64,000 nt of DNA from Carcharhinus amblyrhynchos (taxonomy: Eukaryota), in NCBI GenBank assembly GCA_965287045.1, contig OZ336882.1, forward strand, positions 72,912,001 through 72,976,000, in the 5' to 3' direction. Below are positions 6,210 through 64,000 of the stretch, in pieces. The position numbers and the translations under genes were made by a program. Position 1 is the stretch's first letter. The number at the start of each line of letters is the position of its first letter. The notes below the pieces were generated by a model. That model was not told where the DNA came from, did no database searches, and saw nothing but the letters and a program-made list of their open reading frames with translations.

Positions 6210-6292
6210 TTGTTTATTCACTACTTGTAATTAATCTCTGTCTTAGCTAATTAGAAATTTTCTCAAGGGACGGATTCTTACTGCTATAAATA
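6210..6292 (+). promoter_or_regulatory. Putative proximal promoter of GPCR gene 1: forkhead site, TAATTAAT, CTAATTAG, O/E-like site, TATA box
   Basis: TGTTTAT (6211), GTAATTAATC (6227-6236), CTAATTAG (6247-6254), TCTCAAGGGA (6261-6270), TATAAATA (6285-6292) ~100 bp before the ATG; the module is conserved upstream of genes 2-4. Confidence 0.6.
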
Positions 6293-6385
6293 ATTGTACG
6301 ATTACTTCTCTCTGGTCAATATCAATTGAGATCTTATAATCCTGTTGTATAAGCTAGACTCCAGAGCTCTCAGTGTAAGTAACTC

Positions 6386-6482
6386 ATGGAAAGATGTCAA
6401 GTAACCGGACAAATTATCTTGAATGCATTGTATAAATTTGAAAAGATATATTATCCGCTCCTGGCTGCTGTTGGCGTTCCTG
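6386..6482 (+). CDS. GPR139-like GPCR gene 1, exon 1 (MERCQVTGQIILNALYKFEKIYYPLLAAVGVP+G)
   Basis: ATG 6386 with an in-frame stop upstream; IYYPLLAAVGVP is the start of TM1; donor G|gtgagt at 6482/6483, phase 1, matches the acceptor at 10348. Confidence 0.85.
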
Positions 6483-10348: not shown

Positions 10349-11271
10349 CGAATTTAGTAACGATTGTGATCTTCTCTCGGGGAAAGTGTGGTCTCTCCAA
10401 ATGCGTCACCCATTATTTGGTGGCCATGGCAGTTGCTGATCTACTGGTCGTTGTCATGGATCTGGTACTAAGACATATTCCAGTTGTCTATTGGCGCCAA
10501 TTTGTGTTTTTGTGGCAAGTTCCCTTGTGTAATATCCATGCCGTCTTCATTTACGCAGCAACAGATTGTTCTGTGTGGTTCACTGTGTCATTCACCTTTG
10601 ATCGATTTGTGGCTATTTGCTGCCAGAAGCTGAAAATCAAATACTGCACAGAGAAAACAGCAGCTATAATAATTGGAACACTGACAGTGCTCTTCAGTTT
10701 AAAGAATATTTTCTGGTACTTTCTCTACAGAAGTGAATATCTGCTTATCAATTACCCCTGGTTTTGTTTCATACCAAGTAGTTCATTATTCTCACAGGCA
10801 TGGATAACTATAGAATTCATTCATTATCTTATAAACCCTCTTCTTCCATTTGTTTTGGTTATATTATTCAATGCATTAACTGTCAGACATATCTTAGTGG
10901 GTAGCAGAGCCCGACAGAGGCTGCAGGGTCATGTCGAGGGAAACAGGCACCATGACCCAGAGATGGAGAGTCGAAGGAAGTCAATGACTGTGCTGTTTGT
11001 CATATCTGGTAATTTCATATTGTTATGGACAGTGTTTCTAATTTATTCTGTGTGGCGTCGGATGTGGTATTTAGGTTTTCGATCTTTACGGATGCATGAA
11101 TTTGTTAGAGAATTGGGCTTCATGCTTCAGCTGCTGAGCTGCTGTACAAATACCTACATTTATGCCATGACCCAGACTAAATTCAGAGTGAAGTTGTATT
11201 CTGCACTAACATGTGCCTTCACTCTAATTAATGCATTATTTAAACGAATCGCTGAAATAAAGGCTCCCTGA
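10349..11271 (+). CDS. GPR139-like GPCR gene 1, exon 2 (spliced product 339 aa, 7TM class A)
   Basis: Polypyrimidine tract + cag acceptor at 10348; reads A-NLVTIVI (N1.50), AMAVADL (D2.50), C3.25, FDRF, LLPF (P5.50), LW (6.48), NTYIY, KFR helix 8; open to TGA 11271. Confidence 0.9.
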
Positions 11272-18309: not shown

Positions 18310-18645
18310 CAACGCTGATGTGATATTGGAATTTGATGTTGGTAAAAATGAAAACTTGTAAGAATGGTAGAGGGGAAAAATGTTTGCATTGTCCTTGAAA
18401 AAGTTGATGTTCTGTTTCAGTGCTTGGACGTTTAAAATGCAAAGCACATACAGAGTTCATGGTGAATTATTTGTACAAAAATGTTAAGCTGCCGTCTTGA
18501 CAACTTTTATCTGTTATCTGTGTTTAGCCCAGTGAATGAAAAGCAGGCACTCAGCTTCAAGGAATATATGAAACTTGAATTTGATGGTGTTGACAAACTC
18601 AGACCAATTCTGTTGTTAGACAATTGATTGTTATTGCATGGATAC

Positions 18646-19030
18646 ATGGATATAATGTAAACATTTCTGTACTAGTACTGCTTCATTATGCAAGGAGTTG
18701 GGAGAGGATCTCGGAATTGTGCAATCATTTGTAAACCACTTCTGATCTGTTGATGGACAGAAGGTTACTCACTGATAGAGCAGTTGAAGTTAATTGCTCC
18801 GTGGACACAACCCTGAAGAACTTCCGCAGTGATGTCCTGGAAGCAAATTGATTGAAATGCAACCACCTAAACCGCGTTCATTTGTGTCAGGTATGATTCC
18901 TACGAGCAGAAGACTTGACCTTGATTCCCATTGACACCAGTTTTGTTTGTGCTTCTTCAGCCAATACGTGGTCAACCGCTCCCTTGGTGACAAGAGAAGT
19001 CACCCTCAACTGGCTTCTTTGTAACGTCAC
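18646..19030 (-). mobile_element. LINE RT relic carried in every unit (also ~34600-35620, ~51610-51990, ~59625-60020)
   Basis: Minus strand aaaactggtgtcaatgggaatcaagg...atcatacctgacacaaa...ccaggacatcactgcggaagttcttcaggg is a decayed 'KLESMGI...QDITAGVPQG' RT segment. Confidence 0.65.
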
Positions 19031-19304
19031 ATTATTGCCTTTCATACAGGGTGGATCAGGCACTATTAGCAATTCATGGCAGGAAGTAAAAGTAGAATAT
19101 TATGTCCCTTTAATATCCCACATCATAAACGATCCATCAGAAATCAAAAGTAATGTTAAGTTCCACTGCTTCCAATTCCATTGGCTTCCAGTGAACCAGT
19201 AAATTGTATGGAATAATAATTGTGATCCTTTTGGAACTCTCTGTGCCCTGAGTTGCCTTACTGCAATCCTAAAGTACACAGCTTTGTACGTTCTCTGCTT
19301 TTTT

Positions 19305-19587
19305 GGTAGCACAGTTGTTATCACTGAAATCTCACAGCACCAGAGACCCTCGTTGTATTCTTCTTCTGGGCCAGGTTCTCTCCACGCCTGTATGGCTTTC
19401 CTCCGGGTGCTCTAGTTTCCTCCAAGTAGCAATGACATGCTGGTTAGATGCATTGGCGATGTTAAGTTCAGCCTCCCTGTACCTGAAGATGCGCCAGCAT
19501 GTAGCTTCTAGGTGATTTCCACAGTAATGCCGTTGCAATGTTAATGTTAGCCTACTCGTGACACTAATAAATAACCTTAAAACTTTT
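19305..19587 (+). mobile_element. V-SINE carried in every unit (also ~35936-36211, ~52323-52592, ~60341-60624)
   Basis: ggtagcacagttgttatcactg..tctcacagcaccagagacc head; ggctttcctccgggtgctc; tail tgttaatgttagcctactcgtgacactaataaataacc. Confidence 0.75.
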
Positions 19588-21044
19588 CAGGCCTATGCTG
19601 TGACAGAGATTTGCAAATTACTCGCAGCATAGCGCAGTCGCAGACATCTTTCACTCAATTGTACTCCGGCATCAGGAATTCAAAGTAACATAGATTTAGA
19701 CTAACCGTTCGAGTCTGCTTTTACCATTCAAAGATCTCATAACTAATTTGTGCCCAACTCCATAGACACACATATTACAATTCTCCATTCTCTACCTTAC
19801 AAATACATACAGATAAAACCATCCCTCTGGATAACTGATGAAACCTCTAACATTCTTAACCATCTCTCTATAGTTCTTTACATCTGAAGTTTCCGAGGTA
19901 TACCACGCAGGTAGCTGTAAGTTGTCGTTGCCAAAATGAGCACCCAGTATGTGCTGTGCATTCATGTGCTAATACATCACATGGTGTGGTCACCGATCCT
20001 GGGTTGCCTCTTTGATTCCTCAATCAGTTGACCTGCTGCTGTTAGGATACCTGCCCAGGGGATGAGCAGATACAGATGGAGACTTGCTGAGGAGCTGCTC
20101 TGCAAAATGTCGCGGTGAATTATAATCAGAATTCTGTCTCTGGAATGCAGGAGGAGTATTCTTAAAAATCTGGTTTTGTCCATTCCTCGATATCAATAAT
20201 TTAAACACCAGAATTCGAAATTATTTCATTAAATTGGCTCAAATTGTGGTGAAGTTCAATTTGTAAAGATAGAAAGGCTGGAAACAAAATGCATAAAAAA
20301 TTGTGAGTTCCCTATAAAAGCTGATATTTTGTTAAAATACTTGGAGGTTTAAAATGCAAAGCACATCCAAAGTTCAAGTCGAAATATTTGTATGTCAACG
20401 TTAGACAATACTCTTGAATAATAACCTGTTTGTGTTTGAATGTTGTCTAATTGATTTAAAACAGGCACTCAGCTACCGAAAACCTATAAGATTTGAATTT
20501 GATGTTATTGATAAGGGTCGACGAATCCTATTGTAGGAAAGTTGATCGGTCACTGTAGGTGCAAAAGAGATTGCAAGGGGAAGAAAAAAAAACATTTGGC
20601 TGGCAACTGCCATTATTCAAGCCTTGAGGGAGATCAAGCACTGAAATGCCACTTGCCAAGAACAAAGGGTTTTCAGCTCGACACACCTTGCCAGATTCAG
20701 ATATCTCTCAAGTGAACACACAATCTAACCAGTGAAAGGTGCAGCATCATAAATAACTCACAGACAGAAAATTCAACTGAAAAACTTCAGGAGATTCCAA
20801 AGGATACCAAACCTGGTTGCATACTTATTGAGAGTGAGAAAACTATTGTTTTGTTGTTAATGGATGGGCATTGCTTAGCTGAGATGAATGGCAAACTGGC
20901 CCGTAATGTGGAATAACACTAATCAGTGTGGGTTCAGTTCCAATATCGGTGAGGTTATTCAAAAATGATGGCCTTCTCAACCTTCACATTTTCTGGTTGA
21001 GTCACTACCAGCAAGTTGGGAAATATTTTTACAGACATGTTTTG

Positions 21045-21362
21045 TGGTGTGAAGGGCGGAGGTAGAGGGAGAGGGGTGAGTGAAGGGAAGCGGTGTGAAA
21101 GGAGGTAGTAGGGGAGGGAGGGGCAGGGGAGAGGGATGGAAATATGTGGAAGGAGGGGAGGGGGAGAGAAGGGGCATGGGAGTGGAAGGGTGTGGGAGGG
21201 GGAGGAGAGTGTTGAGGGTATGGGGGAGTGAGGGGAGAGTGAGGGGGAGGGTAGGGGATTGAGGGGTGTGAGCAAGGGGGAGAGGATGGTCAGGGGAGGA
21301 AGGAGATAATGTGTGGGTGAGTGGCAGGAGGTTGAGATTAAATCGGGGAAGAGGAAAGTGAA
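21045..21362 (+). repeat. G/A-rich low-complexity tract (also ~37668-37985, ~54062-54385, ~62068-62358)
   Basis: Dense GGG/GGAG runs, almost no C/T on the + strand; length and sequence vary between units. Confidence 0.85.
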
Positions 21363-21989
21363 CATGAGTCTACAATCCGATCATTCACGCTTCTGTATGT
21401 CACAATGTAAGTTCCCCATAATGTTCCAGTAATGTTCCAGTGTGTGAGAATTCTTAGAGAGTACTGGACTGAAATATGCAACTGCGGTGTTGAAAAACAG
21501 AAAATTGTTGATAATGTATTGGTGAATGTCGCAGTGAATGTGTTCATACATTTTCAAAGAGAATAAGAAAGGTGATGCATCCATAAACTATCTGAGAATG
21601 ATATTAAGGAATAATGCCAAGCGTTTGATTTTCCAGCATGGCTAACACGTGGTACTGCAAACCAGCAGACTCAGTTTAGTAAATACTTCGAATCGAACAA
21701 AGATAATTCTGGAAGGGTAGCTTACATAAAAGGTGCTATCAAATTTCAGATTAAAGTGCTGAAGCAGGTAATGTTGAAATCGGTATTTCAGGGTCATAGA
21801 CTCCAGGTGACCATCCAATGACATTGATGCAACTGTCGGTTTGCAGCATTACTTTGAAATAAGGCAGGTTTCCAAATCAGTCCGTATTGCTTACCACTTC
21901 CAGCCCAGCCTCCTCCCAGCTTTCCTTGTCTGATTCTAGTATCACACTCCACATTTTCCTTCTCGCTCACATACCTATGCAACTCCCTC

Positions 21990-22830
21990 CTCATTGCCCA
22001 TTCACCTTAACTAGGCATGGATTGAGAACTGTTTAGCAGACTGAAAACAAAGGGTAGGGACAAATGAATATTTTCGAAGTTACAGGCGGTGATATTGGTG
22101 AGACGACAACGGAAGTGTTGTGTGCAGTTTTGGCCTCATGATCTGAGAAAGGAGTGGAGCTAATTTACAACAGACTGATTTCTGGGGAAGCGTGTTTCCA
22201 GTATGAGATGAGAATGAGTTGAATGTACATGCATTAACTGTAAATTGGAATAATTTGAAAATACAAAAATATCTGATATGTTTGGAAAGATTGGTTGTTG
22301 GGATGCCATTTCGATGGCAGAGTGGGGTGGGGGTCAATAATAAGATGTCACGACTTTCGTGTATTGGTGGGCCATTAACGATTGAGATGAGGAGAAAAGT
22401 CTTCACTCAGAGGGTGATGAGCCTGCGGAATTCTCTACTACAGATGATGGTGGTGGTAAATAAACTGAATATATTAAATAGCAACATGTAGGCAGACAGA
22501 ATAAGTTCAGTAGATTGAAACCAGATAGGGAGGGATTTTCCTATGAGGAGACGTTGGGCAGGTTGTGCCTGTTTAAAAGAATGAGAGACGACCTCATTGA
22601 TGCATATAATACTCACCAACCTTCTTGAGACATATAAGGGGCTTGACAGGATGCATGCTGAAAAAGTTCTCCTTGTGGGACGGTCTTGGAATAGAGGGCA
22701 TTATCTCGACGAAAGCAGTCGTCCGTTTAAGACAAAAATGAGGTGTAATTTCTTCTTCCAGAGAATACTGAATCCATGGAATACTTCAATGCGTGGGCTA
22801 TCGAGGCAGTCTCGTTAAGTATACCCACAG
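21990..22830 (+). mobile_element. Decayed CR1 relics upstream of each array gene (also ~38630-39900, ~55030-56300, ~62860-63680)
   Basis: ggcatggattgagaactgtttagcagac, gtgtgcagttttggc, gagatgaggagaaaagtcttcactcagagggtg motifs. Confidence 0.65.
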
Positions 22831-23285
22831 TTGAAAAAAGGTTCATTGTAAGAGGGCTTCAGTACAGAAAAAAAGAAGATATCTGATTGGAGCTGTCTCT
22901 GGCTTTGATGAAACCACAACAGTGTTAGTGTTTAGTCGCTGCTATTAGCATCGCTATAAGATGAGCAACAGAAATGCCAAACAAACTTCAAAACAATCAC
23001 GTTAGAGTCGCATAACTATCGGCGAAAGCAGCGTTGGGATGTACCAGTCACATTTTTACTGAGTTAGCACCAATAACAGAATCTTTTAATGCCATTGCTG
23101 ACACTTTCAAGCATTTTCCATAAGCTACTTTTTTTTCCCAAAATATCAAACTCACAACCCGAAACACTTCAGCTCCGGGGATTTTGGTGCGTCAAGAGTG
23201 CAGTTCCTCTGAGATTCCAAAACATTCCACTTGGTGACTTCAAAGAGGGTCTGGACCCGGGTGCAATGAGGAAAAAAATACACCT

Positions 23286-23358
23286 TTATTTGTTCAGTTA
23301 CAGTAATTAATCACGTGCAACATTATGTCACTAGCAGGGACTAGAAAGTTACATAAAT
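23286..23358 (+). promoter_or_regulatory. Putative proximal promoter of gene 2 (forkhead, TAATTAAT, E-box, CATAAA)
   Basis: TATTTGT 23287, GTAATTAATC 23303-23312, CACGTG 23312-23317, CATAAAT 23352-23358; ungapped 20/27 match to gene 1 6210-6236. Confidence 0.6.
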
Positions 23359-23435
23359 GGGGCTCATTGACACTTGAGAGATCTACTTTGCGTGGAACAT
23401 AAGAATTCGGAGGGAAATCCCCACCTCTTCATGAA

Positions 23436-23505
23436 ATGGTGCACGCCGCAATCCTGCAAATAAAGGACATTTACTATCCTCTGCTTGCGACCTTTGGTGT
23501 TCCAG
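23436..23505 (+). CDS. GPR139-like GPCR gene 2, exon 1 (MVHAAILQIKDIYYPLLATFGVP+G)
   Basis: gaaATGg Kozak context; IYYPLLATFGVP; donor CCAG|gtaagt at 23505/23506, phase 1. Confidence 0.88.
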
Positions 23506-40436: not shown

Positions 40437-40513
40437 GGGGCTCATTGATCCTTGAGAGATCTACTTTGCGTGGAACATAAGAATTCGGAGGGAAATTCCC
40501 GCCTCTTCATGAA

Positions 40514-46276: not shown

Positions 46277-48324
46277 TAAGATCTCCCCTGATTATACTGA
46301 GTCTAGTCCCAAACTACTCAATCTCTCCTCATAAGCCAAACATTTCAACTTCGAAATCAACCAAGTGAATCACCTCTGAATCCCCTCCAGTGCCAGTAAA
46401 TTCTTTCTCAGGTAAGGAGACCAAAACTGTACACAGTACTTCAGGTGTTATCTCACCAGAACCTTATATAGTTGCAACATAACCTCACTTTTTTTAAAAC
46501 TTCATCCCTCCAGCAATGAAAGATAACATATCATTTGTCTTCTTAATGACTTGCTGCACCTTCAAAACAACTCCTTGCGATTCCTGCACAAGGATACGCA
46601 GGTCGCTCTGCACAGCAACATGCTGCAATGTTTTACCATTTAATAATAATCAGTGGTGCTGTGTTTTCTGTTCTTACCAAAATGGATGACATCACATTTC
46701 GCAATATTGCTCTCCATCTACCAGATTCTTGCCTATTCATTAAACTATTATACCCCTTTGCAGACTTTCAGCGTCCTCTGCACATTTTGCTCTGCCACTC
46801 ATCTGAGTGTCATCTGCAATTTTCCTAGCACACTACACCTGGTCCCCAACTCCAAATCATCTGTGTAAAGCGGAAACAATTGTAGTCCCGTCACTGATCC
46901 CTGAGGCACATCACTCGCCACCGAGTGACAATCGGATAAACAGCCATTTACCCCCAGTCATTGCTGACTGTTAGTTAACCAATCTTCTATCCGTGCTCAT
47001 ACATTACCCACAACACGGTGCACTATTATCTGATGCAAAAGTCTTTGGTGCAGCAACTTGTCAAATGCCTTCTGGAAATCCAGAAACATCACATCCACAG
47101 GTTCCCCATTGTCCACTGCATGTGTAACGTTGTCAAAGAATTCCACCAAATTAGTCAAACATGACCCTTCCTTCATGAACCCGTGCTATGCCTTACTAAT
47201 GGAACAATTTACACCCAGATGTTCCGCTACTTTTTCCCTGGTGATAGGTTCAAACATTTTCCCTACTATAGAATTTAAGCTAACCAGCCTATGATTACCT
47301 GCCGTTTGTCTATCTTCTTTTTTAACAATGGCGTCACATATGCTATACTTTGACACAAAATGCTGCTCAATTGTTCAGCCATTTTCTCATTTTCAGTTAG
47401 TACATCTCCCTTCTCATCTACTAAAGGATCAATGATTATCTTAGGCACCCTTTTTCGTATTATATATTAACTGAAATTTTTGCTCATTGTTTTTATACTC
47501 TAAGCTAATTTACTCTCATATTCCATCTTATCTTTCTTTCTAACTTTTTCATGGCATTATGGGCCCTTAAATATTTCCGAATCCTCTAGTTTCCCACGAA
47601 TCTTTGCCACTCTGTATATATTTTCTTTCAATTCAACACCGTCCTTTCTTTGCTTAGATGTCCATGGCTAATTATATCTTTTTTCTGCAGTCGTTCCTTA
47701 TCACTGGTACATACCTTTGTTGTGTACTGTGAGAAATCGCTTTGAAAGTCCTCCACTGTTCCTGAATTGTCCCACCATAGTTTTTTGCTCCCAGTCTACC
47801 TAGTCAATCCCTCCTTTATTCCATTGTATTCTATTCTGTCTTACCCACAGCCACGGGTATTGGATTTTACCTTCTCACACTCCATCTGCATTTTAAATTC
47901 AAGAACACTGTGATTGCTTCTTCCGACGGGATCCCTAACTGTAAGATCGATAATTATTCCTGTCTCATTATAGAGGACCATATCTACGATAGTTTGCTCC
48001 CTCATACGTTCTATTACAAACTGTTCAAGGAAGCTATCACAGATACATTCTGTGAACTCCTTCTCAAGGCTGCCTTAACCGACTTGGAGTGAACATTGAC
48101 ATATAGATTAAAAACCCGATGATAATTGCTGTACGTTTTTTTTTACCATTTTTCAAGATTACATTTATCCCTGTTCACTATTTCGTGATAACAATGCCAA
48201 CTAATTTAGGGCTATTCAGAAATGGCAGTGACCTCACAGTAGTTTCGCGACATTGTGAGGAGTGGAAAATTAAAATCAGCAATATAATCATAAGAATGAG
48301 ATAAGTGCTCCGAAAAACAGTGCG

Positions 48325-49960
48325 GATTTAAACATGAATAGCCGTCTTGTTCCGGACAACTGCAGATCAAGCAACCTACATTCACTAGAAATATTGTCCT
48401 CTGGAATGCAGGCACTATCTCATGGTTCATCCCAACAAGGCCTGCTGTGTTTTCCTGTTGTCTGAAACGTTCACACAATGTCACTAAAATGAAATTGCGT
48501 CGACCTTACAAATTCAATATTCATGTTTTAAATGAGAAATAATTTTTATTCATATGTTGCTGTTTGTTCAACAACAGCCCTTGTCAGCCCTCTCCATAAC
48601 CTAAGATCGTTTACTCTCAAGTCAGTTTAGTTAGTGTTAGTAAACCTTTGGTCCTGTGTTTTACAAGCCTATTCCACACTTTCTGCCCCCACCCGCCCCC
48701 GCCCACATCATTTGCCGCTCTCGGTCGTTGGGCAAAGACCTACTGAAGCAACTAAATGGATATTTCTAAGTACCTAAACTTAGTTCTTACTAATTATTTC
48801 GAATTTCCTATTTCTCCCTTCCTTACCCTATCTGCTGTCACTGATGCTGTCACGTCGGTGGATTTAGAAAGTCGTGCAAATCAATTTGTGATTAGATGTA
48901 CAATTACTCCAAACATTAGGATCACAATTAAATAATAAAATTCCTTGAAGGAACGATGAATTCAGAGAGACTATCCAGCCTGGAAGCCAAGTACCTCAGG
49001 TAAATTGTGCAAGGTCTTTGTGTTTCCCACCTCCATGTTCATGTATACGACTGGATTGCTTACGTTTTCTGAACTGTCTTGTATATGAGTGCAAATAAAC
49101 ATCCAATTACTGCACGTGTCCATCCTCTTGCTGCCTAGATTCAATCCAATGCCATACATTGTTGAAGTCCGCTGTACGCATGACAACCATCTCATGAATG
49201 ATCATCTTGAGGGCAGTTCCTGTATTGACAATTTGTTCCCAATGTAGCTCAGCTTTGTAATTTCTTGCATTGTTCGATGCACTCCATATTGGGGAAACGT
49301 TATGCCAAAACCAGGGCTCCTTCTATCAGAGCTCGCCAGCATCTTGGCATGTGAGTCAGTTTATGTATTTACAAAGCTTTCTCCGCTTAACAAATATCCC
49401 TGAGAAGTTGGTTCTCAAATCAGAATCCAACTGTAGAGGCATGCCTGAATGAAGTATTATTTCATTTATTAATCAAAACCATTGTTTTTGGCTGTAGCAT
49501 CTTTGCACGGGAATGCTTCAACCCAACATGGAGATTGATAAATGATCACCAGATGAGAGGTCTTTCCTTGCACTTCGCGCAAGGGCCCAAGAAAATCCAT
49601 CTGCTTATTTCTCCATGGCCTTTTAGGTCATGTTGGATTACCCATCTTGACTCTGCAGCGATGACGTGATTCTACTAGGATGTACTACGGATACCTCTGA
49701 CCATCTCGCTATATCTCCTCGTTGTTATCTTTGTGGTCCTTCTCTGTGTGCACTAATCTGTGATGTGTCTCCAATAAGTTTTGCTGTATCACTTCTGGGG
49801 CTGTTATTTAGTGTTTCCTTCTCCATACACCATTTTGACCTCTCTTCCCTCCCCGTTTTCCCATTCCTGTTTCGCTTCCTCTGTGGCCTGTTCCTGTATC
49901 TCTTTCACATGAATATCTGTGATTCCCTGGCTTGTGCTGGTTTCCTGGACAGGTTTATTG
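48325..49960 (-). mobile_element. Internally deleted ERV relic, copy 3
   Basis: Unit B paralog of 31340-32955; ISD region near 49070-49200 (GLQQCMALD). Confidence 0.75.
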
Positions 49961-51640
49961 GATTCTCTTTAAGCACCCATTGTCATTTGCAACACGTATT
50001 GGTTTAGGCGCAAAATATAACACATTGGAGTGTTCACGTGTCAGCAGAAATTTCAGACAATGGAATCCACATTCCAACTTGATTTCCAGCATTTCGGTAC
50101 AAGTGCCACCCACCGATCGAATGTGGCATCCCTTCATATCAATGAAATTCAAAATCAAAGGAGATTGAAATAAGGCAGGGTGAGAAGGTGGCATTCCACC
50201 CAATCCGTTGTTTGCTTCCCTTGCGAAACCTATTGAAATTTGACCTGGGTCTGTTTCCAAAAATTCAAATGGTTCACGACATTGTGTGAGGGTTATGAAC
50301 TATTTCTGCAGACCATCTTATGACACTTCATTCTTTCGCATTCAAGTTTCATCATCATTTTCTGAGTAAATGGACAGTACAATCCGTACATCACAAGTGG
50401 TAGACTTCGGTTATTGGTGGCATTGGTGACTCCCAGCTACTGAGTGCAGTGCTGGGATTAAACTATGCAAACTCCTCTGAGCTGCCTCCAATGCCAGTAT
50501 GATTTCCCCTCGATAAAACAAATGAAAGGCATTCATAATATTCAAGGGGTTGTGTGAATTATCTGTTGCACAGTTTTAATATGCCTTCCCTCTTTTTTTC
50601 TTCATTCTGTTGGAAATAAAGGCAGACATTCCGTTTATCTTCCCAATTATCTGCTGAATCTGCATGCTTGTATTTGTGATGTATGCACAAGGACGCCTAA
50701 ATCCTTCTGTGTTGTGATTTTCTGCAGAATGTCTTCAATTAAATAATAATCAGCTTATTTATTGTTTCCAACTGAAGCACAAATGCTCACAATTTTTTGC
50801 ATAATATTCCATCTGCCAACTTTACCCCATCTGACGCAAACGACTCCATACGTCTCTGTTGACACTTGTTTCATCACAATAACTTGCTTTCCCATTTTTT
50901 GTGTCATCTGCAAACTTGACAAAAAATCCATTCACTTCCATCTTCCATGTTCGTTTGTCCCTTCACTGAACTGCATGAAAAATAGGCTTGTTGAAAGTAA
51001 CATACCTGATTCTCTATCATTCGTCCACCACATATTGGCATTGCACACCGCACTAAATGCTGTGATGCTTGGCTTGGATCACACTGCTATTCACCAACAC
51101 AACGTGTTTGTTTCCCAATGGATCACACAACTTGTCTTCTCATTTTTTTCTGCTTCATGAATAAGGTTTTACATTTGGATTGCCACTCAATGAGGTTCTG
51201 AATTTATGTTATGGAGCTTAACTAGTTATTCTATAAAATTAATATTATGCTTACATTGGTGTATTGACAGTACATTATGTCCCAGTTTAAGGATGGTGGA
51301 GTAAAAACTCATGAATTGCTTACCTCTCCCCCTACCTAACACGCCTGGGCTTCAGCTCTCATTCCCGCTGTCTTCATCGCTCTCTTTCTAACTCGGCTTC
51401 TTTTTCTCCCTCGCTTTTACTGCATCTGTTTTATTCATACTACGCCAGAAGATAAAGTATTCTCCCTCATTTCACTGAATTCCCCACTGACACATTTCCA
51501 TTCTTCTTGCACTTGTTCTCCCTTCATACAGTCCTCAGCGTAACCTACGTGGGAAAATATATATGTTGCCTCTCTTACTTCACTCCTAACTTCCTGTTTC
51601 CACTGCGATGCAAATACATATTGTCACTTGTCAGCGCAAG

Positions 51641-54600
51641 CATGGACATAACGTACACATTTCTGTACTTGTACTGCTTCATTATGCGAGGAGTTGGGAG
51701 AGGAGCTGGGAATTGTGCAATCATTTGCAAACCACTTCTGATGTGTTGATGGACAGAAGGTCACTGATGAAGCAATTGAAGACAGTTGGTCCGTGAACCC
51801 TGAAGAACTTCCACAGCGATTTCCTGGAAATGTAACCACCTAAACCACTTTCATTTGTGTCAGGTACGATTCCTACTTGTAGAAAACCTACCTTGATTCC
51901 CATTGACACCAGTTTTGTTTGTGTTTCTTCAGCCGATACATGGTCAACCATTCCCTTTCTGACAAGAGAAGTCACCCTCACCTGGCTTCTTTGTAACGTC
52001 ACGTTATTGTCTCTCATACAGGGTGGATCAGACACTATCAGAAATTCATGGCGTCTGATTGACAGCCCTGGTCAAGAAAGAAGAGATGAAGAAAGAGGCA
52101 GGAGGTAAAATAGAATATGACGTCCCTTCAATGTCCCACATCATAAACGATCCATCAGAAACCAAAAGTAATGTTAAGTTCCACTGCTTCCAATTCCAAA
52201 GGCTTCCAGTGAACCAGTAAATTGTTTGAAATAATAATTGTGATCCTTTTGGAACCCTCTGTGCCCTGATTTCCCTTCCTGTAATCCCAAAGCATCCAAC
52301 GTTGTATGTTCTATGTTTTTTTGGTAGCAAAGTTGTTAGCACTGAAATCTCACAGCGCCAGAGACCCTCGTTTTATTCCTCTCTTGAGTCAGGTTCTCTC
52401 CACACCTGTATGGCTTTCCTCCAGGTGCTCTAGTTTCCTCCCAATAGGAATGACATGCTGGTTAGGTGCATTGGCGATGTTAAGTTCAGCCTCCCTGTAC
52501 CTGAACACACGGCAGGGTGATTTCCACAGCAACACCATTGCAATGTTAATGTTAGCCTACTCGTGACACGAATAAATAACCTTAAAACTTTTCAGGCCTT
52601 TGCTGTGACAGAGATTTGCAAATTATTCACAGCATAGCACAGTGGCAGAGATCTTTCACTCAATTGTACTCCGGCATCAGGGATTCAAAGAAACATAGAT
52701 TTAGACGAATCAATCGAGTTTGCTTTTACCATTCAAAGATCTCATAATTAATTTGTGCCCAACTCTATAGACATATGTATTACAATTCCGCGTTCTCGAC
52801 CTTAAAAAAATATATACAGATAAAGCCATCCTTTTGGCTAACTGATGAAACCTCTAACAATTTTAACCATCTCTCTATAGTTCTTTACATCTGAAGTTTC
52901 CGAGATATCTAACGCAGATAGTTTTAAGTTGGCATTGCTAAAATGAGCACCCAGTCTGTGCTGTGCGTGCATGTGTTAATGCATCACACGGTGTGGTCAC
53001 AGATCCTAGGTTGACTCTAAGATTCCTCAATCAGTTGACCTGCTGCTGTTAGGATACCTGCCCAGAGGATGAGCAGAGACAGATGGAGACTTGTTGTTGA
53101 GCTGCACTGCAAAATGTAGCGGCAAATTATAATCAGAAGTCTGTCTCTGGAATGCAAGAGGAGTATTCTTAAAAATCTGGTTTTGTCCATTCCTCGGTAT
53201 CAATAATTTAAACGCCAGAATTCAAAATTATTTCAGTAACTCGGCTCAAATTGTGGTGAAGTTCAGTTTGTGAAGATATAAGGGTTGGAGACAAAATGCA
53301 TTAAAAATTGTGTGTTCCCGATATAAAAGCTGATATTTTGTGAAAATACTCGGAGTTTTGAAATGCAAAGTACATCCGATGGTCAAGACGAAACATATGT
53401 ATCTCCATGTCAGACAATAATCTTGAATACTAACCTGTTTGTATTTGAATGTTGTCTAATTGATTTAAATCAGGCACTCTGCTTCCAAAAACCTGTAAGA
53501 TTTGATATTGATGTTATTGATAATGGTGGACGAATCCTATTGTCGGAAAGTTGATCAGTCATTGTAGGTGCAAAAGAGATTGCAAGGGAGGGTGGGGTGG
53601 GGGGGGGGGGCGGAAGATTTGGCTGGCAACTGCCATCTTTCAAGCCTTGAGGGAGTTCGAGTACAAATGCCACTTGTCAAGAACAAGGGATCTCAGCTCG
53701 ACACACATTGCCAGCTTCAGATATCTCTCAAGTGAACACATAATCTTACCAGTGAAACGTGCAGAAACATAAATAACTCACAGACAGAAAATTCAACCGA
53801 AAAACTTCAGAAGATTCCAAAGGATACCAAGCCTGGTTGCATACTTACTGGGAGTGAGAAAACTATTGTTTTGTTGTTAACGAATGGACATTGGTTCTCT
53901 GAGATGAATGGACAACTGTTCTTAATGTGGAGTAACACTAATTAGTGTGGGTTCAATTCCAATATCGGCGAGGTTATTCAACAATGATGGCCTTCTCAAT
54001 CTTGACATTTTCTGGTAGAGTCACTACCACACAGTTGGGAAATATTTTTTAGACATGTTTTGTGGGGTGAAGGGCGGAGCGAGAGGGGGAGGGAGTGAGT
54101 GGAGGGAAGGGGTGTGGAAGGAGGGAGGAGCGGAGGGAGGGGCACGGAAGAGGGATGGAAAGGTGTGGTGAGAGGGGAGGGGGAGAGGAGGAGGACGGGA
54201 GTGGCGGGGTGAGGGAGGGGGAAGGAAGTGTTGACGGTATGAGGGAGTGAGGGGGAAGTGACGGGGAGAGTAGGGGGATGGAGGGGGTGAGCGAGGGGGG
54301 AGAAGATGGTCGGGGAGGATCGAGATAATGTGTGGGTGAGTGGCTGGTGGTTGGCTTTAAATCGGGGAAGAGGAAAGTGGAAATGAGTCCATAATCCGAT
54401 CATTCACGCTTCCCTATGTCACAATGTAAATTCCCCATAATGTTCCAGTAACGTTCCAGTGTGTGAGAATTCTTAGAGAGTACTGGACTGAACTACTGTA
54501 ATGCCAGTCTTGCAAAACAGAAAATTGTTGATAATGTATTGGTGAATGTCGCAGTGAACTGTGTTCATACATTTTGAAAGAGAATAAGGAAGGCGATGCA

Positions 54601-57600
54601 TCCGTAAACTATCTGAAAATGATATTAAGGAATAATGCGAAGCGTTTGATGTTCCAACATGGCTAACACGTGGTACTGCAAACCAGCAGAGACAGTTTAG
54701 TAAATACTTCGAATCGAACAAAGACAATTCTGGAAGGGAAGCTTACATAAAAGGTGGCTATCACATTTCTAATTAAATGAAGTTAAAGTGCTGAAGCAGG
54801 TAATGTTGAAATCGGTAATTCAGGGTCACAGACTCCGGGTGAGCATCCAATGACATTGATATAGGTGTCGATTTGAAGCATTACTTTGCAATAAGCCAGG
54901 TTTCCAAATCAGTCCGTATTGCTTACCACTTCCAGCCAAGCCTCCTCCCAGCTTTCCTTGTCTGATTCTAGTATCACACTCCACAATTTCCTTCTCGCTC
55001 ACATACCTATCCAACTCCCTCCTCATTGTCCATTCACCTTAACTAGGCATGGATTGAGAATTGTTTAGCAGACTGAAAACAAAGGGTAGGGACAAATGGA
55101 CATTTTCGAAGTTACAGGCTGTGATTTCGGGAACCCTCAGGGATCTGGGCTTGGGTCCAGCGATTTCAATGATGCATCAATGATTTCGATGAGGGAAGCA
55201 GAAATAACATTGGCAACGTTTCTCTCACAAAACTTGAGCGGAACCTGTGTGGCATGGAGGATGCTTAGAGATAGAAGTTGATTTAGGCAAGTTAAGTGTG
55301 CGGGAAGACACATTACAGATGCCGTACAATGTGGGCAAATGTAATGTAAGTAACGTTGGACAGAGAAAAAGAATGTTAGAATATTATTTATATCGTGATA
55401 GATGGGGAAGTGTCGACAAGGAAAGAGACCTAGATGTCGTTGTATACCAGATATTAAAGAAATCATGGAGGCAAGGCAAACAGACAGGTGGTAATTGATA
55501 GGCTGGGCTTCAATGAAAGATGACTTCAGTAAAGGAACAAGAATGTCAGACTGGAGATGTCCAAGGCATTGCTGTGAACACTACAGAAGTATTGTGTGCA
55601 GTTTTGGCTCATGATCTGAGAAAGGAGTGGAGCTAATTGACACTAGAGTGATTTCTGGGAAAGCGTGTTTCCAGCATGATATTAGAATGAGTTGAATGTA
55701 TATGCATTAACAGGAAATTAGAATAATTTGAAAATGCAAAAATATTTGACATGTTTGGAAAGATTGGATGTTGGGATGCCATTTCGATGGCAGAGTGGGA
55801 AGGGGCTCAACAATGAGATGTCACGACTTGTGAATATTGGTGGGCCATTAACGATTGAAGTAAGGAGAGACATCTTCACTCAGAGGGTGGTGAGCCTGCG
55901 GAATTCTCTACTACAGATGATGGTGGTGGTAAATAAGCTGAATATATTTAATAACAACATGTAGGCAGACCAGAATATGCTCAGTAGGTTGAAACTAGAT
56001 AGAGAGGGATTTTCGTATGAGGAGACGTTGAGCAGCTTGTGCCTGTTTAAAAGAATGAGAGACGACCTTATTGATACATATAATACTCATCGACCTTCTT
56101 GAGACACATCAGGGGCTTGACAGGATTGATGCTGAAACAGGGGTTCTCCTTGTGGGACGGTCTTGGAGTAAAGGGAATTATCTCAGCGGAAGGGGTCGTC
56201 CGTTTAAGACAAAAATGAAGTGTAATTTCTTCTCCCAGAGAATACTGAATCCATGGAATACTTCAATGCGTCTGCTTTCAAGGCTATCTCGTTAAGTATG
56301 CGCAAAGTTGAAGAAAAGGCTCATTGTAAGAAGGCTTCAGTACAGAAAAAAAATGGTATCTGATTGGAGCTGTGTAAGTCTTTGGTGAAACCACAACAGT
56401 GTTAATGTTTAGTCGCTGCTATTAGCGTCGCTATAAGATGAGCAACAGAAATGTTAAACTAACTTCAAAACAATCATGTTAGAGTCGCATAACTATCAGC
56501 GAATGCAGCGTTGGTTTGTACCAGTAACTTTTTTTTATTGAGTTAGCACCAATAACAGAATCATTTAATGCCAGTGATGACACTTTCAAACATTTTCCAT
56601 CAAGCTATTTATTTTTTTCGAAAATATCAAACACAGAACCTGAGACACTTCAGCTCCGGGGATTTTAGTTCGTCAAGAGTGCACTCCCTCTGAGATTCCA
56701 ATCCATTCCGCTTGGTGACTTGAAAGCTTGGTGCTGAGGGGAATCATTACCGAATATCTGGACCCGGGTGCGATGAGGAAAAAAAAATACATCTTTATTT
56801 GTTCAGTGACAACAACTAATCACGTGCAACATTATGTCACCTGATTTTACTAGCAGAGACTCGATTGTTACATAAATGGGGCTCATTGATACTTGAGAGA
56901 TCGACTTTGCGTGGAATATAAGAATTCGGAGACAATTCCCCTCCTCTTCCTAAAATGGTGCGAGCCGTAATCCTGCTAATAAAGGACGTTTACTATTCTC
57001 TGCTTGCGGCCTTTAGTGTTCCAGGTAAGTCCGAATATATCCTGTCGATGAATAGTTATGAGACTATCTCACTGTTGCGTCGTCACTGAACATTTTAACA
57101 ACTTGCCCATCATAATATCATAAAGAGCTACACCAAAATTTCATGCAGGAGGCGAGACATCATCCAGGTGAACAAATCGCGGACAACGGCAGCTTGAAAT
57201 TTATTTCCCGGCCCAGAATTGTCTTCCTATGTGTACAGTAGGCAGCTCTGCTCTGTTCCCAATTATAAGTGTAAAGGCTTTATATGCAATGAATGATTAT
57301 TCGAGCTACAGTCATTTCCATCCCACCTCTTTGAAAGATAATTTGTCCATCATTTGTTTAAAGAGCAACAAATGCCTCAATGTGCATCTGGAGATTCCTC
57401 CAGGTGGCTTAACTCGCTCCTGAAGATCTCGTCATGTTATTGTGGGATGTACTCAGGCTCTTACCGTTCAAGGTGGAGTACATTATGCAGCCAGGGGTAA
57501 ACCATCGGCTGTATCTAACGCCCTGGCAACCTTTGAGGTGGCTGTCGATCTTAAAAGCTCATTTTAAGGCGATAAAGACCAACATGTCCTCAGCTTCTTT

Positions 57601-59652
57601 GCCGAGCTGCTATGTTATTCTATAATGAAACGATGCAACATGAAATCAATTGCTCGTCATCTCAATGGGCCAGAGGGATTTCACGAGCTTCACCAGGCAT
57701 AAGCAATATAAAACATAGTGTTGTAGTAATTTCCACGATTTGATACACGTAGGTATAGTGACAGTAAGTGAAAATAAAATCTTATATGTCGTCACTGGAC
57801 TCCACTTGTGCCACAGAATAGATGATGTGGCATCCATGTCTCTTAGATTATTTTTGCACTGATTCGAACTCAATGTGGGGAAATGCCTTTTTTTGCTCCG
57901 ATGCCAACTGTGAGAGATGAATATCTACTTCACCCTTTAAGCTCTTCCCATTAATGGTACGAATTATCTGGAATTGCAAATGTTCTTTGGAAAAACAAAT
58001 TGACAATGGAAATCATTAGACCCCCGTTGAAGTTTCCCTGTATGCCTCCGAGGGTGATTAACCCCCGTCCATTATTCAGCTTTACGGATATATACAACAA
58101 CAGCAAAAAAAGACATTATGGATAGGAGAAGAATGCTGAAATCAAACAGAAAGCGTTGGAGATAAACACCACGTCAGGTGGCACATGGTGCTCAGGAGAA
58201 CAGGGGAGGACAGTCACCCAGCATACCTGAGTGTCAGCAGCACCATGGTGACGCTAAATGTGGAACTACATGCACGCTAAACAAGTGATATAATGAGAAA
58301 AGAAAGAATTAGCGTTTATACTTCTATTGACAGCCCACAGAATTGAAAGGTTTTCTCTGCTTGCCTTTCCACATAGGCTGCCTGACTTGATTTCCAGCAT
58401 TTTTGCACTGCGCTCACTGTTGAGGAAGAATCTCCCGCTTGTGTGTCGCTGTTGAATATTCCCCTTCAATCGGTGATTAAAACTTATAATACTCCTCCCC
58501 CACCACCCCCCCAGCCATCTTCCACGCCCCCCATGCCTTTCCTCTGCTCCTTTCTTCCTTTATGTTCTCCAACATAGTCGGTTCTTTTTCCTTCTGGTAG
58601 AGATTATTTAATTTGGTATTGATTTTTATCCTTTTATTCCCTCATTCCCATTAAAGTGCTCTGTTTCCATGGCACATGCACACACGCTGCTAAGTAGTCA
58701 AATAGATAAACCTTTCTTTTAGATTGACTGAAATGTTCTTATTTTCCTTCCTCTTCTTGCAGCGAACATTATGACCATCGTGATCCTCTCCAGAGGAAAT
58801 TGTGGTCTCTCCAAATGTATCTCTGTCTACATGGTGGCTATGGCTGTAGCGGATCTGCTGATCATGGTGTTCAATGTAGTCGTGTATCTGATCTTCAATT
58901 ATCACTTTCCGTACTCCATTCTGTCCTACACTGCTGTTTGTAAGTTCATTCTGTACATTGCTTTTGTTAGTTTGGATATGTCAGTGTGGTTCACAGTTTC
59001 ATTTACATTTGACCGCTTTGTTTCCATCTGTTGTCCGAACTTTAAAGAGAAATATTGCACGAAGAGAACTGCAACTACGATTATAGTGACGGCCTCAGCT
59101 TTGACCTATTTAAAAGGTGTCCCTATGTGCTTTTCGTACGAAGCTGAACAAATCATTGACAATGTGCACTGGGGCTGTCGGACAACGCAGGCCGTTTATA
59201 CATTGCCACTCAATGTGGTTCTGAATTTATGTTATGGAGCTTAACCAGTTATTCTATAAAATTAATTTTATGCTTACGTTGGTGTATTGACAGCTTACAT
59301 TATGCCCCAGTTTAAGGATGGTGGAGATAAAACTCATGAATTGCTTACCTCTCCCCCTACCTAACACGCCTGTGCTTCAGCTCTCATTCTCGCTGCCTTC
59401 ATCGCTCTCTTTCGAAATCGGTTTCTTTTTCTCTCTCGCTTTTACTGCATCTGTTTTATTCATACAAAGCCAGGAGATAAGGCATTCTCCCTCATTTCAC
59501 TGAATTTCCCAATGACACATTTCCAATTCTTTTTGCACTTGTTCTCCCTTCATACAGGCCTCAGCTTAATACATATGTTGTCTCACTCACTTCACTCCTA
59601 AGGTCATGCTTCCACTGCGATTCAAATGCATATTGTCACTTGTCAGCACAAG
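51641..59652 (+). repeat. Tandem segmental unit C (~8.0 kb, shortened by deletion; contains gene 4)
   Basis: Colinear with units A/B up to 59207, then jumps to the sequence matching 34186/51185. Confidence 0.9.
56955..59244 (+). pseudogene. GPR139-like GPCR gene 4, truncated in ECL2 (exon 1 56955-57024, exon 2 58763-59207, 11 foreign codons to stop)
   Basis: Exon 1 MVRAVILLIKDVYYSLLAAFSVP, donor gtaagt 57025, acceptor 58762; homology to genes 2/3 ends at ...AVYTLP and TM5-7 are missing. Confidence 0.9.
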
Positions 59653-62600
59653 CATGGATATAATGTCAACATTTCTGGACTTGTACTGCTTCATTATGCG
59701 AGGAGTTGGGAGAGGAGCTGGGAATTGTGCAATCATTTGCAAACCACTTCTGATCTGTTGATGGACAGAAGGTCACTGATGAAGCAATTGAAGATAGTTG
59801 GTCCGTGAAGACTACCCCGAAGAACTTCCACAGTGATGTCCTGGAAATGAAACCACCTAAACCGCTTTCATTTGTGTCAGGTATGATTCCTTCTAGCAGA
59901 AAACTTGACCTTGATTCCCATTGACACCAGTTTTTTTTGTGTTTCTTCAGCCGATACATGGTCAACCACTCCCTTTCTGACAAGAGAAGTCACCCTCAAC
60001 TGGCTTCTTCATAACGTCACGTTATTGTCTCTCATACAGGGTGGATCAGACACTATCAGAAATTCATGGCGTCTGATTGACAGCCCTGGTCAAGAAAGAA
60101 GAGATAAAGAAAGAGACAGGAGATAAAAGTTGAATATGACGTCCCTTTTATGCCCCACATCATAAATGATCCATCAGAAACCAAAAGTAATGTTAAGTTC
60201 CACTGCTTCCAATTCCATTGGCTTCCAGTGAACCAGTAAATTGTTTGGAATAATAATTGTGATCCTTTTGGAACCCTCTGTGCCCTGATTTGCCTTCCTG
60301 TAACCCGAAAGCATACACCTTCGTATGTTCTGTGTTTTTTCGGTCGCAAAGTTGTTAGCACTGAAATCTCACAGCGCCAGACACCCTCGTTTTATTCCTC
60401 TCTTGGGTCAGGTTCTCTCTACGCCTGTAAGGCTTTCCTCCAGGTGCTCTGGTTTCCTCCCAATAGGAATGACATGCTGGTTCGGTGCATTGGCAATGTT
60501 AAGTTCAGCCTCCCTGTACCTGAAAACGCGTCAGCGTGTAGCTTCTACGGGATTTCCACAGCAACACCATTGCAATGTTAATGTTAGCCGACTCGTGACA
60601 CTAATAAATAACCTTAAAACCTTTCAGGCCTTTGCTGTGACAGAGAATTGCAAATTATTCACAGCATAGCACAATGGCAGACATCTTTCACTCAATTGTA
60701 CTCTGGCATCAGGGATTCAAAGTGGCATACATTTAGACTAATCAATCGAGTTTGTTTTTACCATTCAAAGATCTCATAATTAATTTGTGCCCAACTCTAT
60801 AGACATACGTATTATAATTCCCCATTCTCGACTTTCAAAATATATGCAGAGAAAGCCATCCTTCTGGCTAACTGATGAAATCTCTAACACTCTATAGTTC
60901 TTTACATCTGAAGTTTCCGAGATATCTAACGCAGATAGCTGTAAGTTGGCATTGCTAAAATGAGCACCCAGTCTGTGCTGTGCATGCATGTGCGAATGCA
61001 TCACACGGAGTGGTCAGAGATCCTAGGTTGACTCTAAGATTCCTCAATCAGTTGACCTGCTGCTGTTAGGATACCTGCCCAGAGGATGAACAGAGACAGA
61101 TGGAGACTTTTGAGGAGCTGCACTGCAAAACATAGCGGCAAATTATAATCAAAATTCTGTCTCTGGGATGCAAGAGGAGTATTCTTAAAAATCTGGTTCT
61201 GTCCATTCCTCGATATCAATAATTTAAACGCCAGAATCCAAAATTATTTCAGTAACTCGGCTCAAATTGTTGTGAAGTTCAGTTTGTAAAGATATAAGGG
61301 TTGGAGACAAAGTGCACTAAAAATTGTGTCTTCCCTATAAAAGCTGATATTTTGTTAAAATACTCGGAGGTTTAAAATGCCAAGTACAGCCGAAGGTCAA
61401 GATGAAACATTTGTATCTCAATGTCAAACAATAATCCTGAATAGTAACCTGTTTGTGTTTGAATGTTGTCCAATTGATTTAAAGCAGGCACTCAGCAACC
61501 AAAAACCTATAAGATTTGAAATTGATGTTGCTGATAATGGTGGACGAATGCTATTGTAGGAAAGTTGATAGATCATTGTCGGTGCAAAAGAGATTGCAAA
61601 GTGGGAGAAAAAAAACATTTGCCTCGCAACTGCTATCTTTCAAGCCTTGAGGGAGAAAGAGCACACAAATGCCACTTGCCAAGATCAAAGGGTTCTCAGA
61701 TCGACACACCTTACCAGATTCAGATATCTCTCAAGTGAACAGATAATCTAACCAGTGAAAGGTGCAGAATCATAAATAACTCACAGACAGAAAATTCAAC
61801 CGAAAAACTTCAGAAGATTCCAAAGGATACCAAACCTGGTTGCATACTTACTGGGAGTGAGAAAAGTATCCTTTTGTTGTTAATGAATGGACATTGGTTC
61901 TCTCAAATGAATGGACAACTGGCCTTAATGTGGAGTAACACTAATCAGTGTGGGTTCAATTCCAATATCAGCAAGGTTATTCAAAAAATGACGGCCTTCT
62001 CAATCTAGACATTTTCTGGTTGAGTCACTACCACAAAGTTGGGAAACATTTTTATAGACATGTTTTGTGAGGTGAAGGGCAGAGGGAGCGGGGGAGGGAG
62101 GGAATAGAGGGAAGTCATGTGGAAAGAAGGCGGAGCGGAGGGAGGGGCAGGGAAGAGGGATGGACAGGTGTGGAGGGAGAGGAGGGGGGCGTGAGTCGCG
62201 GGCTGAGGGAGAGGGTGGAAAGTCTTGAGGGTATGGGGGCGTGAGGGGGGAGTGAAGGGGGAGTGAGTGGGAGGACGGGGGGATGGAGCGGGTGAGCGAG
62301 GGGGGAGAGGACGGTCGGGGGAGGAAGGAGATAATGTGTGGGTGAGTGGTTGGTGGTTGGTGATAATGTATTGGTGAACGTCACAGTGAACTGTGTTCAT
62401 GCATTTTGAAAGAGAGTAAGGAAGGTACTGCATCCATAAACTATCTGAAAATGATGTTAAGGAATAATGCCAAACGTTTGATGTTCCAACATGGCTAACA
62501 AGTGGTCCTGCAAACCAGCAGAGACAGTTTAGTAAATACTTCGAATCGAACAAAGACAATTCTGGAAGGGCAGCTTACATAAAAGGTGGCTATCAAATTT

Positions 62601-64000
62601 CAAATTAAATGAAGTGCTGAAGCAGGCAATGTTGAAATCGGTAATTCAGGGTCACAGATTCCGGGTGACCATCCAATGACATTGATATAGGTGTCGATTT
62701 GCAGCATTACTTTGAACTAAGCCAGGTTTCCAAATCAGTCCGGATTGCTGACGACTTCCAGTCCAGCCTCCTCCCAGCTTTCCTTGTCTGATTCTCGTAT
62801 CACACTCCACATTTTCCTTCTCGCTCACATACCTATACAACTCTCTCCTCATTGCCCATTCACCTTAGCTTGGCATGGATTGAGAATTGTTCAGCAGGCT
62901 GAACCACAGGTGGGGATAAATGAATAATTTCGAAGTTACAGGCGGTGATTTTGGTGAGACCACGACAGAAGTATTGCGTGCAGTTTTGGCCTCATGATCT
63001 GAGAAAGGAGTGGAGCTAATTTACAACAGACTGATTTCTGGGAAAGCGTGATTCCAGTATGAGATGAGAATCAGTTGAATGTACATGCATTAGCTGTAAA
63101 TTAGAATAATTTGAAAATACAAATATATCTGACCTGTTTGGAAAGATTGGATGTTGGGATGCCATTTCGATGGCAGAGTGGGAAGGGGCTCAATAATAAG
63201 ATGTCACGACTTTCGTGCACTGGTGGGCCATTAACGATTGAGATGAGGAGAAAAGTCTTCACTCAGAGAGTGGTGAGCCTGCGGAATTCTCTACTACAGA
63301 TGATGGTGGTGGTAAATAAACTGAATATATTTAATAGCAACATGTAGGCAGACCAGAATAAGTTCAGGAGGTTGAAACCAGATAGGGTGGGATTTTCGTG
63401 TGAGGAGACGTTGAGCAGCTTGTGCCTGTTTAAAAGAATGAGAGACGACCTTATTGATACATATAATACTCATCGACCTTCTTGACACATATAAGGGGCT
63501 TGACAGGATGGATGCTGAAACAGTGGTTCTCCTTGTGGGACGGTCTTGCACTAAGGGGCATTATCTCAACGTAAGGGGTCGTCCGTTTCAGACAAAAGTG
63601 AGGTGTAATTTCTTCTTCCAGGAAATACTGAATCCATGGAACACTTCAATGCACGGGCTTATCGAGGCTGTCTCGTTAAATATACCCAAAGTTGAAAAAA
63701 AGCTCATTGTAAGAGGGCTTCAGTGCAGAAAAAAAAGATATCTGATTGGAGCTGTATATGGCTTTGTTGAAACCACAGCGGTGTTAGTGTTTAGTCGCTG
63801 CTATTAGCATCGCTATAAGATGAGCAACAGAGATGTTAAACAAACTTCAAAATAGTCATGTTAGAGACACATAACTATCAGCGAAAACAGCGTTAGGTTG
63901 TACCAGTCACATTTTTATTGAGTTAGCACCAAGGACAGAATCATTTAATGCCAATGCTGACACTTTTAAGCATTTTCTATCAAGCTTTTTTTTTGCGAAA
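59653..64000 (+). repeat. Tandem segmental unit D (partial; runs off the window before its GPCR)
   Basis: Colinear with unit A 18646-~23140; the last bases match acactttcaagcattttccataagctactttttt of unit A. Confidence 0.88.

Follow-up and report, generated by a model that had tools for sequence, protein, structure and literature searches.

A family of some two thousand GPR139-like receptor loci in a shark genome and its candidacy as an olfactory repertoire

The stretch of DNA analysed here, called the window throughout, comprises 64,000 nucleotides of the shark Carcharhinus amblyrhynchos (assembly GCA_965287045.1, 2.92 Gb in 1,520 contigs; contig OZ336882.1, here C13, positions 72912001-72976000). 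As the first-pass annotation of this DNA had described, it carries four co-oriented two-exon genes, g1 to g4, that encode class A G protein-coupled receptors (GPCRs). Stop-to-stop frames at 10288, 25093, 42147 and 58732 gave matches to Pfam 7tm_1, and each gene has a short upstream exon that ends in G-V-P with a phase-1 GT donor. In g1, exon 1 (6386..6482; all genes and promoters lie on the + strand) encodes the N-terminus and the first half of transmembrane helix 1 (TM1), up to this donor, and exon 2 (10349..11271) completes an intact 339-residue receptor of a subfamily other than that of g2-g4. Gene g3 (exons 40514..40583 and 42178..43106) is likewise intact, with 332 residues. Gene g2 (exons 23436..23505 and 25133..26028) encodes a 321-residue product and has a 1-base deletion in helix 8, so the frameshift that had been reported is real; since it alters only the last ~9 residues, and sister copies of g2 terminate three residues later, g2 is probably still a working receptor. 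Gene g4 (exons 56955..57024 and 58763..59207) is the one pseudogene noted earlier in the cluster: a deletion of ~8.56 kb, with a 6-base ATTGCC microhomology at its breakpoint, removes TM5-TM7 and ends the frame after the second extracellular loop. A predicted fifth gene, g5, does exist just past the window end, with promoter, exon 1 and open exon 2 at window-extended positions 64,144-66,900. Its frame carries an arginine in place of W6.48, a residue invariant among 65 non-redundant members of the family described below, and g5 may be an early pseudogene.

Self-comparison of the window resolved tandem units. Unit A (18645..34640; ~16-17 kb) holds g2, unit B (34641..51640) holds g3, unit C (51641..59652), shortened by the ~8.56 kb deletion, holds g4, and unit D is represented by its start only (59653..64000), its gene g5 lying beyond the window. 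The units are 85-92% identical to one another; g1 stands apart from these units, and its identity to g3 is only 42%. Because synonymous divergence (dS) between the local copies is 0.08-0.11 and related copies occur in three other organisms examined, the window units are not very young. The description of the cluster as actively expanding needs tempering to that extent; in arrays elsewhere in the genome, copies are 98-99.9% identical. Among eight local copies the ratio of nonsynonymous to synonymous divergence (dN/dS) ranged by region from 0.25 to 0.76. Positive selection was considered and rejected: the ratio is ~0.4 in the inner and outer parts alike and exceeds 1 in no region, as expected under purifying selection. 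Synonymous divergence is also raised in a TM2-TM3 hot spot, which suggests a mosaic history there. A LINE (long interspersed nuclear element) reverse-transcriptase fragment (RVT_1) lies at 16903-18033 (+), and decayed relatives occur inside the tandem units at ~28911-30179 and 45603-47165 (-).

The window samples a family of two-exon class A GPCR genes whose loci number roughly 2,000-2,500. An exact 33-base TM7 motif matched 1,921 times genome-wide (913 + 1,008) against 4 control matches, and an exact TM3 motif 1,196 times (584 + 612) against none. The TM7 counts give at least 1,917 loci, not the handful of copies that the first-pass annotation had named as grounds against its proposal. In the range listed for both motifs, 47 of 61 TM3 hits also carried the TM7 motif, from which ~2,490 loci (2,200-2,970) are estimated, presuming that this range is typical, with motif carriage differing between subfamilies. 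Genome searches with g3 and g1 returned 3,418 and 3,423 first-look candidates; the best 128 and 129, which were scored, all had E<=1.8e-81 and lie on many contigs. Exon 2 was open at 26 of 30 motif-picked loci and in 8 of 10 copies along contiguous stretches of C32, C41 and C52 that total 140 kb. The same genome yielded three olfactory receptor (OR) matches, at loci other than those of the family, and 51 NCD3G (class C) matches, a figure that covers V2R, T1R, CaSR and mGluR-type genes and agrees with the 34 V2Rs of the catshark (PMC10116579). As neither number is inflated, an assembly-wide doubling is unlikely. Some small contigs do look redundant, and halving the count would still leave about a thousand loci. 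At C9:98.9-99.55 Mb the TM7-motif hits repeat every ~85 kb with three to four genes each, a higher-order tandem array, and megabase stretches of C32 (0.1-4.1 Mb), C41, C52, C39 and C40 are apparently filled with one family gene per 12-20 kb.

Could these numbers mostly reflect near-neutral segmental amplification, or haplotypes left unmerged, around a small working core? Hits with identical scores on C68 and C173 and in pairs on C41 point that way, several of the window's neighbours are pseudogenes, and the motif-hit places are listed in part. We nevertheless consider this quite unlikely. The dN/dS ratio is ~0.4 even among recent copies, most of the frames sampled above are open, and the promoter blocks described below are conserved across paralogues that are only 49% identical. 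The copies on C41 are 90-99.6% identical, mostly too distant for alleles, the V2R number is not inflated, and many members occur in other sharks and rays.

The proteins have the hallmarks of class A receptors: 7tm_1 over its curated cut-off, seven helices, N1.50, D2.50, DR3.50, P5.50, W6.48 and N7.49/Y7.53. Membership of the OR, TAAR, V1R, V2R or T2R families was rejected, 7tm_1 being the only match over the Pfam cut-off and the OR and class C searches finding other loci. The AlphaFold model is mediocre (pLDDT 68, pTM 0.57), and Foldseek matched it to many peptide receptors of class A, GPR139 not being among those listed; this supports the seven-helix fold only. Searched against solved structures, the family profile placed human GPR139 first (71.5 bits against 52.0 for the next); in a single-sequence search of the PDB, GPR139 ranked fifth. 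A homologue search returned 702 clusters, and 119 of the 120 listed are named, all of them from sharks and rays. Of 20 further family representatives, 19 are named or share a cluster with a named protein, all chondrichthyan and including Callorhinchus milii, and one is unnamed. The C. milii protein sits with g1 in a starred subclade (97/94), so that diversification began before the chimaera-elasmobranch split.

The first-pass annotation had proposed a chondrichthyan expansion of the GPR139/142 clade. The expansion and its birth-and-death pattern are borne out on a far larger scale than guessed, whereas the genes fall outside that clade. A GPR139 motif matched at a single locus, on C18, which is the true orthologue (87% identical to human and 99% to a Mustelus asterias cluster), and in the GPR139 search the single-copy GPR142 on C21 was followed by family members at 24-32% identity. 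With both true orthologues accounted for, and with a clade of the family and GPR139/142 alone rejected (approximately unbiased test, p-AU 0.006, performed after an earlier tree had been seen), orthology to either gene was ruled out. A careful tree of 33 proteins, a selected subset with one distant outgroup, made the family sister to a single-copy amphibian/sturgeon gene (100/99); together they nest among low-copy orphans of Latimeria, Odontesthes, Engraulis and Microcaecilia and the shark locus L038 (98/94), and this GPR210-like group stands beside GPR139/142 with 91/85, a node that is unstarred and relies on the one distant outgroup; the earlier tree had left this fork open. By sequence, then, the family is a chondrichthyan clade of sharks, rays and chimaera, with the amphibian/sturgeon gene as its counterpart in bony vertebrates, in a lineage that is probably sister to GPR139/142. 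GPR139, GPR142, L038 and all 62 family genes for which exon 1 was found share a phase-1 intron before N1.50. L038 itself (C7:106816752-106817630; exon 1 in L215) is a separate low-copy GPR139-like orphan that groups with the Engraulis and Microcaecilia proteins and has a 19 kb intron at the family's position. The amphibian/sturgeon gene (P0327, P0414-P0433) is a conserved single-copy orphan with N rather than D at 2.50, which databases wrongly list as GPR139; none of the 25 matches returned came from an amniote or a teleost.

Within the 65 non-redundant members from this genome (mean identity 49%), D2.50, D3.49, R3.50, N5.58 and W6.48 are invariant (65 of 65). We compared 30 positions that we take to form the ligand pocket with the rest of the receptor. 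Entropy is 2.25 bits in the pocket against 1.06 in the intracellular half (p=1e-8), and paralogues are 34% identical in the pocket against 65% in the intracellular half. Across six cross-species orthologue pairs pocket identity rises to 74% (133 of 180 cells), and other extracellular positions behave similarly (40% among paralogues, 75% among orthologues). The pocket-focused divergence noted earlier for the window is found at the defined pocket positions of its subfamily, of which 13 of 30 vary (including 2.57, 2.61, 3.32, 3.33, 6.51 and 7.39) against 31 of 154 other TM positions (p=0.01), but not with a coarse split into outer and inner halves (39 of 138 against 38 of 152 varying; dN/dS 0.42 and 0.44). 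The N-terminus is very short in most members, with an N-glycosylation sequon in exon 1 of 8 of 62. One subfamily (L143 on C52, L130, L102, L146, L154, L155) has a longer N-terminus made of a variable number of 14-residue repeats, several of which bear a sequon (four in L143).

This diversity bears on a possible role in reproduction or in internal neuroendocrine signalling, in sperm, oviducal gland or brain, near the role of the family's single-copy relatives. GPR139 is a brain receptor (PMC5430874), and FMRFamide-receptor-like genes are expanded in hermaphroditic snails (PMC11589774). Such a role seems to us very unlikely, as internal ligands are few while the pockets of the 65 sampled paralogues differ.

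A shared promoter module had been proposed for the window genes; it is present there and throughout the family, as a compact, ordered block beside the start codons. In g1 it spans 6211..6290, with a forkhead-like site TGTTTATTCA at 6211, homeodomain-like TAATTA at 6228 and 6248, an O/E-like site TCTCAAGGGA at 6261 and a TATA box at 6285; the factor names reflect likeness to what we take to be their consensus sites. The g2 (23287..23357) and g3 (40365..40435) promoters retain a forkhead-like site, TAATTA and a TATA-like CATAAA, and in the g4 promoter (56796..56876) the homeodomain-like site has decayed. The O/E-like site between homeodomain site and TATA is degenerate in g2-g4, and g2 has O/E-like sites with two mismatches upstream at 23172 and 23205.

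From 80 stretches and the window, exon 1 could be located in 62 family genes (introns of 135-7,866 bases), and 53 flanks remained after removal of near-duplicates. The top motif of a de novo search was forkhead-like (TGTTTGTTCA). When flanks were anchored on the forkhead-like site (46 of 53), the other elements rose above a background of 0-5 sites per bin in distinct places: TAATTA-type sites at +10 to +19 (12), O/E-like sites in two bins, +30 to +39 (13) and +50 to +59 (14), and TATA at +70 to +79 (13). With a spacing window and TATA variants that were chosen after the data had been seen, an O/E-like site lay 16-26 bases before TATA in 22 of 53 flanks, against 0 of 50 upstream controls and a mean of 1.3 (maximum 5) in 60 shuffles. 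As the flanks are homologous, the pair reflects conservation and not independent gain. A forkhead-homeodomain pattern occurred 232 times genome-wide against 41 for its control; as far as the hits are listed, the excess falls within family clusters. Upstream of GPR139, GPR142 and L038 the ordered module was not found, and isolated O/E-like matches were at chance level. Mouse OR promoters are marked by O/E, homeodomain and TATA motifs (PMC12547500) and V1R promoters carry O/E-like motifs (PMC3247230); judged by its motifs, the family promoter resembles those of mammalian odorant receptors.

So large and clustered a repertoire, with a single signalling face, many different pockets and a compact promoter in common, points to receptors for an open-ended range of molecules from the outside world. 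We therefore consider, at about even chances, that the family is an overlooked olfactory receptor repertoire for water-borne molecules. EBF, homeodomain (Lhx2/Emx2-type) and forkhead factors would read the promoter in sensory neurons, and each neuron would choose one or a few family genes, as for mammalian OR and V1R promoters. Every receptor would use its own pocket to bind a small soluble ligand or peptide unlike those of the others, and all would signal through a common G protein, probably by the Go/Gq-PLC-TRPC2 route of the microvillous neurons of which the shark olfactory epithelium consists. In the catshark nearly all olfactory sensory neurons are Go/TRPC2-positive, while a probe for the V2R co-receptor marks 5.9 cells for each mm of lamella and the remaining probes mark 0.45-2.8 (PMC10116579). 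The text consulted gives no TRPC2 density; these figures would appear to leave room for a missing receptor family. Four of the six sequencing runs listed (X1-X4) cover the intron without a splice joint and are thus DNA-like, with no bearing on expression.

Several results weigh against an olfactory role. Beyond the post hoc spacing noted above, the O/E and TATA composite occurred in none of 12 V2R promoters of the same shark, and the full module in none of seven further V2R-like exon-1 loci; the module is thus not bound to the olfactory neurons of sharks. Nor are EBF and forkhead factors confined to such cells, since they also govern B cells and many neurons of other kinds. The pocket does not differ significantly in entropy from other extracellular TM positions (2.25 against 1.93 bits, p=0.085), and no dN/dS above 1 was found in any region of the eight local copies. 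The GPR139 site for L-Trp and L-Phe comprises F3x33, H5x43, W6x48 and N7x38 (PMC5430874). In the family F occurs in 20 of 65, H in 30 of 65 and W in 65 of 65, N is not among the four commonest residues, and g3 retains only the W. To judge from these residues the amino-acid pocket of GPR139 is not kept; with W6.48 alone fixed, aromatic amino acids are unsupported as ligands, and the pocket lends nothing to the amino-acid sensing that had been suggested for the family. Syed et al. invoke V2Rs alone to account for the shark nose (PMC10116579), and the top-50 list of a catshark brain/olfactory library contains no GPCR, with V2Rs absent too (PMC11979771). In the V2R clusters on C3 (L232-L271) most genes have a TATA shortly ahead of the start codon, in several a TTGGGA/CGGGA half-site lies at a greater distance upstream, and a V2R-specific promoter signature may exist.

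The same signatures admit two further sensory roles. The receptors could be innate immune sensors on leukocytes, like MRGPR or formyl-peptide receptors, for peptides of microbes or parasites. EBF1 and FOXO1 are B-cell factors, although a homeodomain site is atypical of lymphocyte elements. Large fast-turnover arrays on the small contigs C32, C39, C40, C41 and C52 would suit such a role, and a conserved OR-kappa gene is reported to be immune-cell specific (PMC13113109). No dN/dS above 1 was found, a pocket that keeps 74% of its residues between orthologues of different shark orders is unlike an arms race, and we judge this role unlikely. Alternatively, the family could be chemosensory outside the nose, T2R-like or nutrient-sensing, in taste buds, solitary chemosensory cells of skin and gills or gut enteroendocrine cells. 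Its sequence signatures suit such a role too, forkhead and homeodomain sites suit endodermal cells, and GPR142 is an amino-acid sensor of islets and gut. Also in favour, cartilaginous fishes have only 2-5 taste receptor genes (PMC10869828). Against it, paired O/E-like sites beside TATA are best known from OR and V1R promoters, and two thousand genes far exceed the largest reported taste repertoire of 268 (PMC10869828). We place this possibility, too, among the unlikely ones.

Taken with the phylogeny, the olfactory reading can be drawn more fully, and in that form we hold it tentatively, as somewhat short of probable. Cartilaginous fishes would have made a fifth olfactory family of their own from the GPR139-sister gene before the chimaera-elasmobranch split. 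With ~2,000 intact genes here it would rival the largest OR repertoires, and its genes would be chosen one by one through an independently evolved forkhead-homeodomain-O/E-TATA promoter in TRPC2-positive neurons beyond those of the V2Rs, hidden under the name 'probable GPR139'.

That name is carried by 113 of the 120 listed homologue clusters, and database annotation of the family is automatic. No description of it was found in the open PubMed Central and bioRxiv literature, with subscription journals outside that scope; 'GPR' is absent from the main text of the catshark sensory genome paper, and the family is unmentioned in the supplements of PMC10115646 (except file 1) and PMC13188829 and in 12 of the 24 files of PMC8455134. 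The family has thus, we believe, probably gone undescribed so far. Surveys give cartilaginous fishes 20-62 olfactory receptor genes, a smaller number than in any other vertebrate group (PMC10869828), the whale shark genome paper speaks of their paucity of GPCRs (PMC8455134), and Syed et al. note that few receptors mismatch large olfactory organs (PMC10116579). Whatever their function, some two thousand GPCR loci contradict the claim of paucity for this genome. If they are olfactory, the view of sharks as animals with very few smell receptors would change, a long-standing puzzle would be answered, and an independent case for the study of receptor gene choice would be at hand. Through the single-copy gene of Xenopus, the ancestral ligand could be approached.

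Among known systems, GPR139 is the best solved-structure match, and GPR139 and GPR142 share with the family the intron, N5.58 and a non-proline at 7.50. The family differs from them in being only 23-26% identical, in keeping C3.25 while mostly lacking P6.50 and R6.51, and in that N7.39 lies outside its four commonest residues. Rinne et al. (2019, PMC6504862) place 'GPR210A/B' orphans of coelacanth, gar and fishes beside GPR139/142, and sharks have no occurrence in that survey. The family nests among such GPR139-like orphans, the GPR210 label denoting resemblance, but those orphans are low-copy. The direct sister is the amphibian/sturgeon 'probable GPR139' (e.g. XP_069092602.1). No closer shark orthologue of it was found at E<=1e-35 among the best 136 of 2,913 candidates, which were scored. 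Unlike the family, it forms about one cluster (68-74% identical) per amphibian species and one in Acipenser, and it retains P6.50, K6.51 and N7.39.

Further afield, nematode srw proteins and Aplysia rhinophore receptors are chemoreceptors, and the nearest non-chordate Atlas clusters are FMRFaR-like with Srw hits. An FMRFamide-receptor-like branch is expanded in snails (PMC11589774), but in the tree these proteins form a separate clade (100/98), and the expansions are independent. With the OR, TAAR, V1R/ORA, V2R/OlfC and T2R families the shark genes have in common that they lie in clustered tandem arrays, undergo birth and death, vary in the pocket and are preceded by compact promoters in which TATA is joined by O/E-like and homeodomain-like sites; they differ from all of these in their TM1 intron, their peptide-receptor-like origin and a sequence that belongs to none of them.

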